From: Mycoplasma todarodis
GTDB taxonomy: Bacteria; Bacillota_I; Bacilli_A; Mycoplasmatales; Metamycoplasmataceae
Reading direction: 5' to 3'
NCBI RefSeq assembly: GCF_965212735.1
Contig: NZ_CBDBYJ010000003.1
Span: 102,099 to 118,997 of the forward strand
Length of the DNA stretch: 16,899 bases
The first letter of the stretch is position 1. The number at the start of each line of letters is the position of its first letter. Positions 3,824-16,899 of the stretch are shown here, in pieces. A program made the translations under genes and the position numbers. The notes beneath the pieces are model-generated. The model ran no database searches and had not been told where the DNA came from. It saw only the letters and a program-made list of their open reading frames with translations.

Positions 3824-4001
3824 GCTAAAAGTTTACCCTATTTATCATGTTTTACAAAATGCCCCTTTATATATAAACACCTTATTCTTTAAAGGTGCTT
3901 GCCACCATGCCCTAATGAATGCTACTTTTTAATAAGTTTAAACTCTAAATAAAGGTTTATAATTGTAATGAAAAAATAATATTTATAAAGGAGAAAAATC
4001 A

Positions 4002-4172
4002 ATGGTTAAATTTACAAGAATCAAAGGAATGACACAAGAAAGTGTTGCTCAAAAAACAGCTGACGAAGCTTCAAGATTACTTAAAGAAGGATTTGAAATT
4101 ATTTCAATCACACAGTATGCAGATGCTGGTTCAATTGGTAGAAATAAAGCAGCTACAATTTACTACAAATAA
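4002..4172 (+). CDS. small hypothetical protein, 56 aa
   Basis: Not in the track (under 60 aa). A strong SD (AAAGGAGAAAAATCA) precedes ATG 4002 and a TATAAT lies at about 3958-3963. Product: MVKFTRIKGMTQESVAQKTADEASRLLKEGFEIISITQYADAGSIGRNKAATIYYK. It ends in a double stop TAATAA followed at once by a terminator. The track ORF 4042..4224 is a different frame of the same DNA. Confidence 0.55.
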   Translation: MVKFTRIKGMTQESVAQKTADEASRLLKEGFEIISITQYADAGSIGRNKAATIYYK

Positions 4173-4173
4173 T

Positions 4174-4199
4174 AAAAAAGAGCAATGCTCTTTTTTTAT
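4174..4199. terminator. bidirectional intrinsic terminator (small ORF / dprA)
   Basis: AAAAAAGAGCAATGCTCTTTTTTT: stem AAGAG/CTCTT flanked by an A-run and a T-run. It overlaps the dprA stop at 4196-4198. Confidence 0.7.
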
Positions 4200-7169: not shown

Positions 7170-7323
7170 AATATATATCTCCTTCCATATGCTTACACAC
7201 TTCTTGGAGCGTATACATAAATATATTATATAGTGTTTTAGAGGGTTGATGACATTAATATGCTTTTTCTTTTTTTATTGGATTTTATTATTCCCCTTAT
7301 ATATAGAGGGGTTAAAAATGACG

Positions 7324-7353
7324 TGAAAAAAACCCGCTCGCCAAAGACAGGTT
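7324..7353 (-). terminator. orphan minus-strand intrinsic terminator upstream of the csp promoter region
   Basis: The minus strand reads AACCTGTCTTTGGCGAGCGGGTTTTTTT. Two stem positions are G.U pairs only in the minus-strand RNA and are C/A mismatches in the plus-strand RNA, which favours minus-strand function. Confidence 0.5.
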
Positions 7354-7947
7354 TTCTTTGTACTCAGTCAAGCCAATAACCGAATACTTAATATTTATTC
7401 TGAGAGAGAATACACTTTATAATGAAGAATTAAATTCATATTATTCAGACTTTAATTCATAACGTGAGTGTGCATCGCCAAATAAACACAAGCACCATCA
7501 TAAAATGTTTTATATTAAAATTATTAATACACGTAATTTTTCAATTACATATTTATTATACACATTTTTTTTATCTTTTTTATCAGTTATATAAACTTTT
7601 TTAATTATTTTTATTTCTCAGAACAAAAAAAGCACCTATAGGACACCGCACACCTTAAATTTTATGCTATGAGTAGCAATATTCTTGGTGCAAATTTATT
7701 GAATTTTATAAATAAAGCCCATTTTAACATGCTTTTAGACCGGAAAACAGAGACTAATAAAACGTGTAATTTAGGCACTTGTTTTAACCTCGATATTTTG
7801 CATATTTTCACCTTAATTTTGATCAATTACATCTTCTTAAGTTTCGTGCATATTACCACCCTATTCACAGATGTTAAAGTCATTCAATCATAAGGTTTAA
7901 GGTCATTTAAAACACTCCGCGTTAAACTTGCTAACATAACCTTATTT

Positions 7948-7990
7948 AAAAGAGAACTACCTTAGATGAGGTGTTCTCTTCTTTTTATTT
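7948..7990. terminator. strong hairpin terminator downstream of clpB, also usable from the plus strand
   Basis: AAGAGAAC (7950-7957) pairs with GTTCTCTT (7973-7980), with an inner ACCT/AGGT extension. The plus strand continues CTTTTTATTT and the minus strand continues TTTTAAAT. Confidence 0.65.
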
Positions 7991-8017
7991 ATAAAGAATT
8001 AAAAAACAAATGTGCCA

Positions 8018-10213: not shown

Positions 10214-10240
10214 TTAGCACTCTACACTTGCGAGTGCTAA
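10214..10240. promoter_or_regulatory. CIRCE operator (HrcA binding site)
   Basis: Perfect consensus TTAGCACTC-N9-GAGTGCTAA (N9 = TACACTTGC), positioned over the -35 region of the clpB promoter. Confidence 0.9.
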
Positions 10241-12946: not shown

Positions 12947-12970
12947 GAAAAAAGCACTCTTAAAGTGCTT
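12947..12970 (-). terminator. intrinsic terminator of the 363-aa gene
   Basis: The minus strand reads AAGCACT-TTAAG-AGTGCTTTTTT. The stem overlaps the TAA at 12969-12971. Confidence 0.7.
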
Positions 12971-14060
12971 ATAAATCTCCAAGTAATTCATTCATGAAAT
13001 CTTCATCAAGTTCTTGAGTAACAATTTCTTTTTGTTCAGGTATTTTAGTTTCTCTATCATCTTCTTTAATAATAGGATCATTATATGTAACTTCTTCTAC
13101 CTCGATAATGTCTTCAACACTTTGTTGAACCAATGTATTTGAATTAAGCAATTCTTCCATGAAATCTTCATCAAGTGATTGATTATGTAGCTTTGTTTCT
13201 TCATTAAATAATGTTATTTTCTTTGGTTTAGCAACTCTTTTTGGTTGAATTCCTGCTTTTTCTTCAAGACCAACAGAATTCAATAGTTCATTAGCATACT
13301 TATCATCGTAGTTTCGATTGTGTAACTTTGTTTCTTTGTTTACTACCACTCTCTTTTTAGGTTGTGGTTTTGTTTTAACTGGTTCTGCACGTTTTGTTAC
13401 AAAGTCATCAGTCTTATCTAGTCCTCACGCTTTTAATAATTCTTGAGAATATTTTTCATCTAATTTTTCAGAATAAACTTCTTTATCTGGTTGTTTAGTA
13501 CGTTTAACTTTTTTATAAGTTTTTTCTGTTTTCTTCTGTTCTGGCATTCTATCTTTGATAAGTCCAAATTCTTTTTCAAAATCATTAAAGAATTCTTCAG
13601 AAGATTTACCCTTGAATAATGAATCCTTTAATATTTGTTCAACTTGTTCTAGTTTTGATTCTTCTTTATATTCTTTTTTCATGAATTCTACAAATCTTGA
13701 AGTTGAATTTATGAATGCAGTTAATAATAAATAGTTTTTGTCATCACTTGTATTTGTAAAAGCTAAAGTCATATCAACTTCTCCAAATGCAATATTAGCA
13801 ATAAAGATTTTTTCATTTTTATAAGTTACAAATGTTTTTGTTGTTCCATAAATAACTGATCTTATAAATTGAGCGTATTCAACTTTTTCTTTATTAAGTT
13901 CTAATCTTTCATTAAGTCTTGAATGAGCGTGATCTGTTAAAAATACACTTTTATCTCCGAATTTTTCTTTTGATTCAATTCTTAATGAACTCGATGGCAT
14001 TACTTGTTCTGTAAATTTATTTACGATGTGGCTTGTTAGTTTTAATTGGTTAAGAGTCAT
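12969..14060 (-). CDS. hypothetical protein, 363 aa: N-terminal HAxxRLxER domain plus a C-terminal repeat region with four acidic LDEDFMxELL-type motifs
   Basis: Track ORFs 13425..14060 and 12969..13349 share a frame and join through TGA 13425-13427 (...ELLKAWGLDKTDDFVTKRAEPVKTKPQPKKRVVVNKETK...). ATG 14060 has no SD but lies 7 nt after a TATAAT. Confidence 0.75.
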
Positions 14061-14067
14061 ATGTACT

Positions 14068-14073
14068 ATTATA
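14068..14073 (-). promoter_or_regulatory. -10 box (ATGTATAAT), 7 nt before ATG 14060; probably a leaderless mRNA
   Basis: The minus strand reads AAAAATGTATAATAGTACATATG. Confidence 0.45.
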
Positions 14074-14106
14074 CATTTTTACTAGCGCCCACTTGAAATG
14101 AGTAAT

Positions 14107-14130
14107 AAAAAACGAATCACGTATGACTCG
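14107..14130 (-). terminator. orphan minus-strand intrinsic terminator at the low-coordinate end of the gene desert
   Basis: The minus strand reads CGAGTCA-TACG-TGATTCGTTTTTT. One stem position is a G.U pair only in the minus-strand RNA. Confidence 0.55.
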
Positions 14131-14950
14131 CATTATTATTTAATATTAGTACAAGAAGAGTGCCACGTCCTCTGAATACTATTTATACGTTAAAGAAATG
14201 AATTGCACTTCTGCCAGAAAGTGCGTGTATTTGTTAATTTTATCTTTGTGAGGTTAAAATTCCTCACGTTTGCTTATATTGAGATAATATACTCAGCTTT
14301 TGATTCAACTTTATTTTTGTGGAAGACAAAAAGTTGAATTTCTTCAAATGGTGAGAAATGAAAAATCATCATAAGAACGATCATAATGCATTTTATGGAT
14401 GTTTTCAGTAACAAAGTATCATGCCATATATTTGCATTATCTTTTTATAAACCAGTGCCTTCCGATTGAATTATACCCTTAAAATTATTTTTATTTTTCG
14501 AGGCCATTTTTTTCAAAAAGCCCACAGAATTAACCTATTACGGGTTTTAACGCTTTCAAAAAAGCACATTTTTTTAAGGCCACCCTATATAAAATAACAT
14601 TTTTGTATAACTGTTCACTTATATAAGAATTTATGCAGAGAAAAAACTTATTTTTACTGAATTTAAACATAATGCCTCATTTGTCCTAAAATTCGCCATT
14701 TCATTTTTTAAAGGTATTAGTGCTTTTTCCTACTCTTTTTATAAAAAACAAGGCCCAATTTTGAAAACAACCTGTGTACTCAGGTGCTATTTTTTTATAA
14801 CTTAGGAAAAAAATAGGAAAAAACATACTTATTAGGTCAAAAAATGCATTTTTATTTTTGGGGGTACCTCCCACCCCATAATTTCATGGTTTTTCTTGTA
14901 AAAAGCACCATATAATTTAGTTGTCCTAGATTTACATGTAGGATGTTCGG

Positions 14951-15010
14951 ATGATTATTAAAAGATATGTGTTAGCTCTACTTAGGAATTGAGCTGATGG
15001 AAGTTCATAA
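14951..15010 (+). CDS. possible 19-aa ORF (MIIKRYVLALLRNWADGSS)
   Basis: AGGA lies 7 nt upstream of ATG 14951 and a TATAAT lies at 14911-14916. The ORF overlaps the next one. It may be chance or pseudogene debris. Confidence 0.2.
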
Positions 15011-15146
15011 AATATCTTTTAAAAATAAATATGGAAAAAACTCTTTTCGATCCATATTTGAAGTTGTCAAGTTTAATGATAAATGCAAGTCTATTGTTGA
15101 GCGTGGGGAACGTACCCCTCGATTATTTAAAGAAACGTTTAAATAA
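14997..15146 (+). CDS. possible 49-aa basic protein
   Basis: AGGAA lies 8 nt upstream of ATG 14997. Product: MEVHKISFKNKYGKNSFRSIFEVVKFNDKCKSIVERGERTPRLFKETFK. Its composition is more protein-like than other frames of the desert. No family recognised. Confidence 0.3.
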   Translation: MEVHKISFKNKYGKNSFRSIFEVVKFNDKCKSIVERGERTPRLFKETFK

Positions 15147-15451
15147 TTCGCCTAATAATTAATACAACTAATTAGTATTAATTAAATAAAACGATTATGA
15201 GCAACGCACTGAGAATATTATTAACACAGTAATTTATTAATCTAAATGTTTACACCTAACTAAGAACATACACCTGGATTATCAATATATTAAAATGCAC
15301 GATTTATTTTGCTAATTAGTTTCGCCATTGATTAGCATTCGCCAACTTAAAAAATGCAGTTGTTTTAGAATCAAATTACTTGTGACGAGTAACGCTAAAT
15401 ACTTTTATTTTAAAAAAACTTTTATATAACACGGTGAATTAATCACCACTT

Positions 15452-15487
15452 AAAAAGAACATAATGATTATTGTTCTTTTTTTTATA
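15452..15487. terminator. strong intrinsic terminator inside the gene desert (plus-strand T8; weaker in the minus direction)
   Basis: AAGAACA (15455-15461) pairs with TGTTCTT (15472-15478), with an inner ATAAT/ATTAT extension, followed by TTTTTTTT. Confidence 0.6.
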
Positions 15488-15625
15488 ACCTTTTTTAGCA
15501 TAGAACCTTATTTATTAATGCTTATTATTCTTTTTAAGGGGTAAAGTTATATTCAATGGGAAAATATATGTTTTGTTTGCACTCCCCTGTTAAAAGGCTT
15601 ATTTTAAACAAAGATAGGCCATATT

Positions 15626-15651
15626 AAAAAGAACTCAAGTGAGTTCCTTTT
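15626..15651. terminator. intrinsic terminator after the permease gene (bidirectional geometry)
   Basis: GAACTC-AAGT-GAGTTC, flanked by AAAAA and CTTTTATTTTT, 8 nt beyond the TAA at 15659-15661. Confidence 0.6.
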
Positions 15652-15658
15652 ATTTTTC

Positions 15659-16899
15659 TTATTTAAAGTCTCTTCCTAAGTATTTATAAACTACTAGACC
15701 AGCAAGAGATATAGCAATGATTGATCATACAACGTATACAATCACAGGTTTAACTCATGGTGTTTCTGTGTAGTAAGTTAATCTTAAGTCTGATTCATAT
15801 AGACCCATTTTAACTAGAGCTTCTGGTTTTTGTCATAAAGCACTATTAAATGCTGAAGAATCGTCTTTGAATTTTTTAACAAGTAAATAGTTGAAAGCAG
15901 GGATTTTTTCTAAGTTAGTATTATCATCTGTGTTTTCTGTTCATGAGAATCCTATTTTACTCATATTAATTACTAATCCACTAATTGCTTTGTCATATGT
16001 ATCTCAAGTATTGCTTCCTGTTCATATTGCTGGGTTACTGTAAATCTTATTAGCATCCTGAATATTGTTAGCAATTGTTTTACCACTTGAGTTTTTACTT
16101 CTGAACCCTTCTGGTTTAAAGTAAAGTAAACTATAGTCTTTACCATTTATGTTAACTTGCATCGCATTATTTGTAAAGTTATCATCTGAGTTTGATTTTC
16201 AATCAGTTACATTAATTAATGAAACATTTTTTGTTTGGAATGCTGAATAGAATTTGATAAGTTGTTGATAAACATCTATGTAAGCAACATATTTATATCA
16301 ACCTTTATCTTGTTCTTCGATTGCAGCTTTAAGAGTTACACCATCTTGGTCATAAACTCTTCCACTATTGTATGTTGTTGTTCCATCCGCTTTAATAGCT
16401 ATTACATTTTCTTGTCTTGCACCTGAAGAAATTTGTCCATTACCTAAAGGTGAAAGAATAAATGATGTAATAGAGAATACAAATGGAATAAGTATTGCTG
16501 TAACTAATGTCGCAATCTTACCGAATGAAGATGCTACAAATGTTATAACTGAAGACATGATCATTGTGATGATTAAGTTCCCTATAAATAAAGAACCTGC
16601 AAATTTTATCTTTTGAGTACCATTTGCGTTTGTATCTGCTAATGATATTATGATTCCAAGTAGAAAGATGAATACTGAAAAGAATAATATGTGTGCATAT
16701 AGAGCAAGGAATTTACCAACGATGATTTTAATTCTTTTTATTGGTTTGGCAACGATTATTAATTCTGTACCATCTTCTTCTCCATCTTTAAAAATTGTGA
16801 TTGCTTTTGTGGCTACATACAATGGACCAAATACAAATGGGAATAAGTAGTAGTAAGCTAATAGTCCATCAATAACTGCAGCATCTGATTCATTATTTG
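15659..16899 (-). CDS. ABC-2-type transporter permease with a large extracytoplasmic loop; N-terminus runs off the right edge
   Basis: Track ORF 16298..16822 (GTELIIVAKPIKRIKIIVGKFLA, several TM helices) is open upstream to position 16899. Downstream it continues through many TGA codons (first at 16298-16300) to TAA 15659-15661, ending in the TM helix VWSIIAISLAGLVVYKYLGRDFK. Confidence 0.8.

Follow-up and report, generated by a model that had tools for sequence, protein, structure and literature searches.

The stretch of DNA analysed here, referred to as the window, comprises 16,899 nucleotides (nt) from Mycoplasma todarodis and has a G+C content of 30.7%. Its genes are open throughout solely when TGA is read as Trp (genetic code 4), and this reading together with the low G+C content identifies the DNA as that of a Mollicute. 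The window carries a gene for a dNK-like kinase, a lipoprotein gene, topA, dprA, a second lipoprotein gene, cspA, clpB, cutC, and genes for a DnaQ-like exonuclease, a hypothetical protein of 363 amino acids (aa) and an ABC-2 permease. The last two are separated by a gap of 1,598 nt (14061-15658), which is the subject of this paper and in which two conserved modules were found, referred to as candidate RNA-L (minus strand, next to the 363-aa gene) and candidate RNA-R (plus strand, towards the permease gene). Mollicutes have the smallest genomes of free-living cells, with hardly any non-coding DNA, and for that reason a gene-free stretch of 1.6 kb that is kept for the lifetime of a clade demands an explanation.

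No protein gene could be recognised in the gap. Under translation table 4 the single open reading frame (ORF) of at least 80 codons in 14078-15659 is a stop-free run of 118 codons on the plus strand (14194-14550). This run had already been reported in a preliminary description of the window, whose view of the gap as gene-free under code 4 was correct. A search of 5.8 billion proteins gave no homologue of the 118-codon frame, six-frame translations gave no match to Pfam, NCBIfam or PHROGs, and no ORF of at least 12 codons is intact in all relatives. These searches gave no support for fragments of protein genes in the interval. Known RNAs were not found either. The Rfam 15 covariance models, which include RNase P, transfer-messenger RNA (tmRNA), signal recognition particle RNA, 6S RNA, T-box and riboswitch families, gave no match at the gathering threshold anywhere in the window and none in the gaps of four relatives. 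For the large RNAs OLE, GOLLD, ROOL and raiA, and for HEARO, there was no match even at E<=10. This agrees with the earlier failure to match the gap to known RNAs by eye. The best sub-threshold Rfam matches in 13900-15800 were eukaryotic small nucleolar RNA and microRNA noise (E 0.14 to 9.5), and ARAGORN detected no tRNA or tmRNA.

The preliminary description had also considered a decayed mobile element, a prophage remnant or pseudogene debris. These readings are unsupported: blastn against phage DNA gave no match, six-frame searches revealed neither a protein family nor remnants of a transposase or integrase, the gap has no terminal repeats in inverted or direct orientation, and the other repeat pairs are short and at chance level, apart from the hairpins. 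Long AT-rich non-coding DNA with palindromes would suit a function at the DNA level, whether in replication (origin or terminus), partition or recombination, or else a scar left by a mobile element, and the curve of cumulative GC skew levels off from about 14100. However, DnaA boxes occur at chance level (67 matches with at most two mismatches versus 72 expected) with no local cluster, and there is no dnaA gene in the window, which rejects a chromosomal replication origin. The lack of terminal repeats, of transposase or integrase remnants and of phage similarity argues against the other variants, and the G.U-specific strand asymmetry of the modules described below indicates pairing in RNA, not in DNA. 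We consider a DNA-level element highly improbable.

The order permease, gap and 363-aa gene recurs in four other genomes. These are the metagenome-assembled genome Mycoplasmatales DT_67 (loci L001/L004; gap of 1,359 nt), a metagenome contig from ENA (L005; the whole gap, 79% identical), M. todarodis strain 5H (L003; gap of 2,040 nt, with a 161-aa ORF on the permease side), and a small contaminant contig in a large assembly (L006), which holds only the first 398 nt of the gap. Below, the window, ENA and DT_67 are called the three close species; the four species include 5H as well, and the five lineages also L006. Mycoplasma marinum is without such a gap, since its homologue of the 363-aa gene follows tatD after 221 nt. 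The 363-aa protein family has only six members among the 5.8 billion proteins, and the product encoded in the window is 100% identical to a protein labelled M. todarodis. A scan of a genome collection with the permease returned two species only, and scans of metagenome and viral collections with the RNA-R promoter plus 5' motif, the most conserved motif of the gap, returned no match. Judged from these occurrences, the gap is ancestral to a small clade of a few Mycoplasma genomes (about five) from marine invertebrates.

Four-fold degenerate sites in the flanking genes provided a neutral baseline, with identities to the window of 0.74 for DT_67, 0.74 for ENA and 0.55 for 5H. The gap is not conserved as a block, because its overall identity of 0.76-0.81 (aligned bases) matches this neutral level and that of other intergenic DNA. 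Its conservation is strongly patchy: identity per 30-nt window has a variance of 0.0348, versus 0.0078 +/- 0.0015 for permuted columns, a value reached by none of 2,000 permutations (p<0.0005). Three-way identity rises to 0.8-0.97 in islands at 14161-14220, 14296-14345, 14431-14490, 14566-14595, 14776-14850, 14881-15090 and 15241-15330, and two blocks (15093-15234 and 15485-15546) are missing in DT_67. Short motifs lie nearly equidistant from the gene start in the four species, TATAATTTA for example at 871/854/867/872 nt, and motif order and spacing are kept over about 900 nt at a neutral-site identity of 55%. Only two segments, 14161-14340 and the surroundings of 14941-15060, have significant folding-energy z-scores, and the matching offsets are significant in 5H. 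In the roughly 600 nt between these two modules z is near 0, in the window and in 5H alike. The features of the gap are listed in Table 1.

Table 1. Features of the gap between the 363-aa gene and the ABC-2 permease gene (window positions; RNA features are predictions).
Feature	Position	Strand	Remarks
363-aa hypothetical gene	12969-14060	minus	left neighbour of the gap; ATG at 14060
Extended -10 box of the 363-aa gene	14068-14075	minus	TGTATAAT; 7 nt ahead of the ATG
RNA-L intrinsic terminator	14104-14131	minus	stem 14131-14124 / 14119-14112, loop 14123-14120, then TTTTTATT
Candidate RNA-L	14105-14463	minus	about 360 nt; 5' GGAAGG, H5 (14441-14379), H4 (14370-14350), H3, H2, H1, H0 (~14185-14150), terminator
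RNA-L core	14185-14339	minus	H3 14339-14330 / 14312-14303; H2 14267-14262 / 14253-14248; H1 14224-14218 / 14211-14205
H3 apical loop	14321-14326	minus	UCUUCC (window, ENA, DT_67) or UCCUCC (5H, L006); anti-Shine-Dalgarno-like
Purine motif, predicted RNA-L 5' end	14458-14463	minus	GGAAGG (window, ENA), GGAAGA (DT_67), GGAGGA (5H, L006)
Candidate RNA-L -10 box	14470-14475	minus	TATAAT (plus strand ATTATA); 6-7 nt upstream of the purine motif
Central region	14476-14910		between the divergent -10 boxes; ~435 nt, length conserved
Invariant block	14569-14584		TTTTTTwAAGGCCAcC; central region
Invariant block	14788-14804		TATTTTTTTATAACTTA; central region
Invariant block	14820-14835		AAAACATACTTATTAG; central region
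Palindrome	14840-14853		AAAAATGCATTTTT; central region, invariant
23-codon hydrophobic ORF	14844-14915	plus	MHFYFWGYLPPHNFMVFLVKSTI; ATG in the palindrome, stop within the RNA-R -10 box
Candidate RNA-R -10 box	14911-14916	plus	TATAAT; inside the 20-nt run AAAAAGCACCATATAATTTA, invariant in the three close species
RNA-R P1	14922-14928 / 14939-14945	plus	
Candidate RNA-R core	14923-15101	plus	at least 180 nt, from ~14923; P1, P2/P2a, P3, P4
RNA-R motif	14942-14952	plus	GGAUrUUCGGAU; invariant
RNA-R P2	14958-14968 / 15012-15022	plus	encloses P2a
RNA-R P2a	14972-14978 / 14991-14997	plus	12-nt loop UACUUAGGAAUU, identical in the three close species save a one-base deletion in DT_67
RNA-R P3	15026-15034 / 15052-15060	plus	
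RNA-R P4	15072-15081 / 15092-15101	plus	
Weak terminator-like hairpin	15103-15121	plus	contains the GC island GGGGAACGTACCCC
Island G	15241-15337	plus	three-way identity 0.8-0.97; hairpin 15310-15318 / 15329-15337, loop GUUUCGCCAU (a TTCGCCA word; UUUCGCC)
Bidirectional intrinsic terminator	15452-15484	both	A-run, stem AAGAACA/TGTTCTT, T-run; z -3.5/-4.7
Variable filler	15485-15625		partly missing from DT_67; holds the 161-aa ORF in 5H
ABC-2 permease gene terminator	15626-15658		hairpin 15631-15646, T-runs on both strands
ABC-2 permease gene	15659 onwards	minus	right neighbour of the gap

The ends of RNA-L were derived from its -10 box and terminator. The -10 box lies inside a 15-nt run, AATTATACCCTTAAA, that is invariant in the three close species, with AATTATAC kept in all five, and its distance from the terminator is 354-381 nt across the five. 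Terminator-like sites are frequent around the gap, with eight in 13500-16200 versus 0.6 +/- 1.0 in shuffled sequences. One of them is the minus-strand terminator noted earlier, which was recovered at 14131-14112 and would close RNA-L. Its stem differs between species, being GCGAGTCA/TGATTCGT in the window and ENA, GCGAATCA.. in DT_67, AGTCTCTG/AGGGGCTT in 5H and TAACCC/GGGTTA in L006, and in 5/5 species it is followed by a T-run on the minus strand. This strand gives the more stable terminator in four species and an equally stable one in L006.

The core of RNA-L consists of the hairpins H3, H2 and H1, joined by the invariant linkers AAAGAUAAAAUUA and AUUCAUUUCUUUAACGUAU. Pair counts from MAFFT alignments were misleading, since stems of different sequence fell out of register, and they were dropped in favour of model-guided alignments. 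A covariance model of the core (14339-14185) built from the window's own sequence finds 5H at the syntenic site (49.8 bits, E 1.4e-6). Refined on four species, the model also finds L006, which was not used in training (28.1 bits, E 0.0045). Over the five species 95.9% of the cells hold standard pairs (shuffled 72.5 +/- 2.8%), 16 of 27 pairs are changed on both sides (shuffled 7.1 +/- 1.8) and 31 further pair types occur (shuffled 19.9 +/- 2.4); none of these values was reached in 500 shuffles. Sliding the partner columns by 1-3 positions reduces pairing to about 43%, with at most five double-sided pairs. The cells that deviate from Watson-Crick pairing, read on the minus strand, are eight G.U and no A.C, and the H3 stem of ENA is intact on this strand only. 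For a purely computational case, the evidence that RNA-L would be a structured RNA is strong.

The apical loop of H3 is C/U-rich in all five species and complementary to Shine-Dalgarno (SD) sequences, and the predicted 5' end of RNA-L is an SD-like purine motif followed by no ORF in most species. The fourth base of this motif co-varies with the H3 loop (A-U versus G-C), and the minimum free energy fold of full-length RNA-L pairs GGAAGGCA at the 5' end with UGUCUUCC in the loop. A contact between the two is suggestive only.

The position of RNA-L raises the question of whether it could be a cis-acting 5' leader of the 363-aa gene, resembling an attenuator or riboswitch, in which a sensed signal would decide between stop and read-through at 14131-14104. 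RNA-L lies on the strand of the gene, directly upstream, with its terminator about 45 nt before the ATG, and RNA-L and gene occur together in all five genomes. Such a role is nevertheless unlikely because a promoter appears to lie between terminator and gene. The extended -10 box TGTATAAT keeps the same distance from the ATG in six genomes (at 14060-14075 in the window and 9985-10003 in L007), namely the five that bear the gap and M. marinum, which has the gene and no RNA-L. As the gene lacks an SD sequence, translation from an internal AUG in a read-through transcript would be inefficient. The folds contain no alternative antiterminator pairing, and Rfam gave no riboswitch or T-box match. These observations do not fit an attenuation leader or riboswitch. 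The constant place of TGTATAAT in all six genomes points to an own promoter of the 363-aa gene, and this implies a leaderless mRNA transcribed independently, downstream of the RNA-L terminator.

At the other module, ATATAATTTA at the -10 box of RNA-R and the following UUGUCCUA...GGAUrUUCGGAU are conserved in all four species. Independent folding yields the hairpins P1, P2, P3 and P4 in the same order for the window (z -2.55) and for 5H (z -2.60). In 5H, P2 has the offset from the UUCGGAU anchor that it has in the window, and P3 follows after an equally short linker. Four pairs of P2 and four of P3 are changed on both sides between 5H and the window with pairing kept. A position-constrained shuffle test was used in place of the three-species model, and none of 5,000 dinucleotide shuffles of 5H shows both P2 and P3 at those positions. 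Covariation is uninformative in the three close species as their sequences are too conserved here. G.U outnumbers A.C by 19 to 1 in favour of the plus strand, a ratio that arises in part by construction. The evidence that RNA-R would be a structured RNA is moderate.

The 3' end of RNA-R is uncertain and may be either of two sites. The weak hairpin at 15103-15121 is a possible end of an RNA-R of about 205 nt in the window and ENA, and it is dispensable, as it lies inside the block 15093-15234 that DT_67 lacks. Further downstream, the hairpin at 15452-15484, proposed earlier as a strong terminator, folds strongly and recurs in relatives, and it was missed by a simple scanner as it has only two G-C pairs. 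Alignment shows its counterparts in DT_67, ENA and 5H (AAAAGAGAACAT..ATGTTCTCTTTT); the stem of ENA reads GAGCGT/ACGCTT, as seen by eye in the alignment with no formal count. This terminator is likely the outer limit of plus-strand transcription. Island G, between the two sites, may belong to a longer RNA-R as its distal part or stand as an element of its own. Its hairpin shows one double change from C-G to U-A between the window and both ENA and DT_67, and it can be aligned only weakly to 5H (62%). At the right-hand border, the hairpin with T-run at 15631-15646 was present as previously described, and this permease terminator is kept in all four species, with changes in the loop.

The conserved order and spacing of motifs over about 900 nt in four species, the many hairpins, and terminators that stand only at the outer edges of each strand would also fit one large structured RNA of about 1-1.3 kb across the gap, similar in size to OLE, GOLLD and ROOL; the preliminary description had allowed for a large RNA. 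Against this, the middle 600 nt or so have no excess folding stability in the window or 5H, the two modules prefer opposite strands, and the conserved -10 boxes point outwards from the centre. Nor were matches found to the large RNA families named above. In view of the z-score profile and the strand asymmetry a single large RNA was rejected, and we hold it to be very unlikely.

The central region between the divergent -10 boxes shows neither excess structure nor an ORF kept across all species. Besides the invariant blocks of Table 1, AAGGCCACC is counted among its conserved elements, and these blocks are possibly operator sites. The short words and GC-rich islands that the preliminary description had emphasised are mostly irrelevant as markers of function, being either not conserved or not enriched. 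Both GC islands exist where reported, but the one at 14860-14877 falls in a variable, poorly conserved stretch of the central region and the one at 15105-15118 in a block that DT_67 lacks. AGGCCA occurs at the positions given, is not over-represented in the window (5 versus 3.0 expected) and is conserved only at 14577. TTCGCCA was also placed correctly and is indeed over-represented (5 versus 0.69 expected, 0/200 shuffles), but only the copy at 15321, in the loop of the island G hairpin, is kept in all three close relatives. A 9-mer, ACTTAGGAA, occurs in the P2a loop of RNA-R (14981-14989), in the central region (14799-14807) and, as reverse complement, in the last permease codons (15673-15681).

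The 23-codon ORF at the border of the central region and RNA-R represents the possibility that the gap holds tiny protein genes, possibly a type I toxin with an overlapping RNA. The ORF is hydrophobic, and in the window, ENA and DT_67 it is uninterrupted and free of indels. Type I toxin-antitoxin loci typically have bidirectional terminators and small transcripts that diverge or converge. However, the ORF is intact in these three species only, and in 5H it is broken by an 8-nt insertion and lacks the ATG. In its centre about six non-synonymous changes stand against two synonymous ones between the window and DT_67, as read from the alignment. The conservation of its two ends has another explanation, since the start lies in the palindrome and the stop in the -10 box. 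No other ORF of at least 12 codons is intact across all species, and the conserved modules are marked by covariation, not by codon periodicity. A type I toxin-antitoxin locus was rejected on these grounds, and we give tiny protein genes in general very little credence.

The neutral level of overall identity would also be expected if the gap were mostly decaying, functionless DNA left by lost genes, with conserved patches that are merely promoters, terminators and operator sites of the flanking genes and with incidental hairpins. Pseudogene relics do occur in small bacterial genomes, blocks of 60-140 nt were deleted in DT_67 without replacement, and the extra ORF at one end in 5H suggests gene loss in the other lineages. 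Yet the six frames show no trace of a protein family or homologue. At the edges of the gap the flanking genes are already served by a promoter and a terminator, so they do not need the internal -10 boxes and terminators. Double-sided changes in 16 of the 27 pairs of three internal hairpins are unexpected for incidental structures, and length and order are kept over some 900 nt despite the low identity at neutral sites. Decay as the main explanation is thus improbable.

An interpretation of the gap should account for the computed results, namely the conservation of the locus, its patchy constraint, the -10 boxes and terminators, the covariation of the RNA-L core, the architecture of RNA-R, the strand asymmetry and the lack of coding potential. 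We favour, with somewhat better than even confidence, a clade-specific non-coding island that would consist of two independent, divergent genes for small structured RNAs with a control region between them and terminators at the borders. This supports the proposal of one or more structured non-coding RNAs in the preliminary description, as compensatory changes occur in two modules, and each of these has a conserved -10 box and a terminator of its own. RNA-L would be transcribed on the minus strand from TATAAT at 14475-14470, starting at about G14463, fold into H5, H4, H3, H2, H1 and H0, and stop at its terminator just upstream of the separate leaderless promoter of the 363-aa gene. Its 5' purine motif (GGAAGG/GGAGGA) would pair with the H3 apical loop (UCUUCC/UCCUCC). 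RNA-R would be transcribed on the plus strand from TATAAT at 14911-14916, starting at about 14923, form P1, the branched P2/P2a, P3 and P4, and end at the weak hairpin or at the bidirectional terminator. On the left the island would end with the RNA-L terminator, on the right with bidirectional terminators. Transcription of the two RNAs, their exact ends and their function are what we infer from these features.

The usual marks of a small-RNA gene can be listed for both modules. An own conserved promoter is predicted from sequence for RNA-L in five species (TATAAT at 14475-14470, minus) and for RNA-R in four (14911-14916, plus). An intrinsic terminator on the same strand is found for RNA-L in five species (14131-14104), and for RNA-R it would be one of the two sites discussed above. 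Compensatory structure is present in the RNA-L core, and in RNA-R only by comparison of the window with 5H.

Several points weigh against two RNA genes, besides the neutral level of overall identity. The promoter calls use only -10 boxes, and the DNA is AT-rich. The available genomes number just four or five and fall into two subclades, so that many compensatory changes may be few events; the co-variation between the 5' motif and the H3 loop is one double-sided change that probably arose once in evolution. Pairs were counted in alignments fitted to the model structure, and such alignments lean towards that structure, although the margin for RNA-L is large. By folding energy H3 and H4 of RNA-L have no consistent strand preference. 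For RNA-R, the three-species model finds 5H only at noise level (E 0.84). The three close species show just two double changes, both in P2a, which is not significant as 69 of 500 shuffles reach this number, and in 5H P2 and P4 fold better on the opposite strand.

As to function, our best guess is that RNA-L and RNA-R are trans-acting, Hfq-independent regulatory RNAs of the Firmicute type. By analogy, the H3 loop would bind SD regions of target mRNAs and block their translation, and the 5' purine motif would mask this loop or shield the 5' end from RNase J. In RNA-R the P2a loop would serve as interaction site. A bolder proposal, to which we assign a low probability, is that RNA-L represents a new class of structured RNA of about 360 nt, in which the co-varying SD mimic and anti-SD mimic form a switch that engages the ribosome itself. 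It would either titrate the 30S subunit or the 3' end of 16S rRNA, or act as a sensor that exposes one motif or the other. If that were true, a minimal genome would have kept a small regulatory module made of RNA only, comprising RNA-L, RNA-R and the control region of conserved length. As candidates, RNA-L and RNA-R are new, clade-restricted small RNA families of an already familiar kind, and no new principle is indicated. They would add new families to the very few regulatory RNAs of Mollicutes that are backed by comparative evidence, and they come with testable coordinates, strands and pairings, including the SD-like motif at the 5' end and the anti-SD-like loop. These predictions can be tested directly, as M. 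todarodis is cultured. Their scope is narrow, about five genomes from marine invertebrates.

Some further observations concern the rest of the window and its relatives. The other intergenic gaps had been described as 36-328 nt long, which is incorrect, as 3824-4195 (372 nt) and 7170-8017 (848 nt) are also gene-free. The latter stretch, between the clpB stop and the cspA start, was overlooked in the preliminary description; over 570 nt it is 85% identical to DT_67, a better match than that of the gap under study, and it is possibly a long cspA leader or the site of further RNA genes. A perfect CIRCE operator, the HrcA binding site (TTAGCACTC-N9-GAGTGCTAA, 10214-10240; no chance match expected), precedes the start codon of clpB (10153, minus strand) by about 60 nt. 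This is its sole occurrence, and the gap contains none. The 161-aa ORF of strain 5H (L003 11299-11784), with two predicted hydrophobic stretches, is located between the permease gene and the bidirectional terminator. It matches no Pfam or NCBIfam family, is not found in the window, ENA or DT_67, and has left no remnant in the window detectable by tblastn. Relative to the window, DT_67 carries an inserted Band_7/NfeD gene pair (L001 3987-5386), shared by 5H and M. marinum, together with a block that contains an insertion sequence (rve integrase) and an AbiEii-like gene (L001 12926-16292); the lineage of the window therefore lost these genes or never had them. Finally, the source of the window and strain 5H, both labelled M. 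todarodis, are 55% identical at four-fold degenerate sites and 69-73% identical in the flanking proteins, and are probably different species.

Among known systems, RNA-L resembles RNAIII of Staphylococcus aureus and RsaE, known as RoxS in Bacillus subtilis. Like these, it would be a stand-alone gene with a -10 promoter and an intrinsic terminator, both predicted here, and would fold into several hairpins with a pyrimidine-rich apical loop complementary to SD sequences. The host lineage is not known to have Hfq. There is no similarity in sequence or to the covariance models; RNA-L presents UCUUCC/UCCUCC in one hairpin loop, whereas RNAIII and RsaE/RoxS have repeated UCCC/CCCC motifs, and at about 360 nt it is longer than RsaE/RoxS. 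We know of no intramolecular partner of the loop, such as the 5' GGAAGG of RNA-L, in RNAIII or RsaE/RoxS. For the purine motif itself there is a parallel in STAB-SD of the Bacillus thuringiensis cryIIIA mRNA, an SD-like purine motif near the 5' end that is not followed by a start codon and for which protection of the 5' end was proposed. The RNA-L motif likewise lies at or near the (predicted) 5' end of a transcript. STAB-SD, however, resides in an mRNA leader and is thought to bind the 30S subunit, whereas the RNA-L motif co-varies with an internal anti-SD-like loop, which suggests intramolecular pairing.

OLE, GOLLD, ROOL and the raiA motif are, like the candidates described here, sizeable multi-hairpin RNAs that emerged from comparative genomics of long gene-free gaps with support from covariation, and their function is mostly unknown. 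They differ in being one RNA of 600-800 nt, whereas the structured parts found here measure about 155-360 nt and 180 nt and lie on opposite strands. The candidates are limited to about five genomes, and the gap gave no Rfam match to those families at E<=10, nor did the relatives. A similar setting is that of the predicted or detected small RNAs of other mycoplasmas, with which no homology is expected. Sets such as those from M. hyopneumoniae and M. pneumoniae (PMC5088518) are likewise intergenic, have a promoter and a terminator, are restricted to a species or clade and belong to no Rfam family, and in contrast to those sets the present candidates have covariation support in several species.

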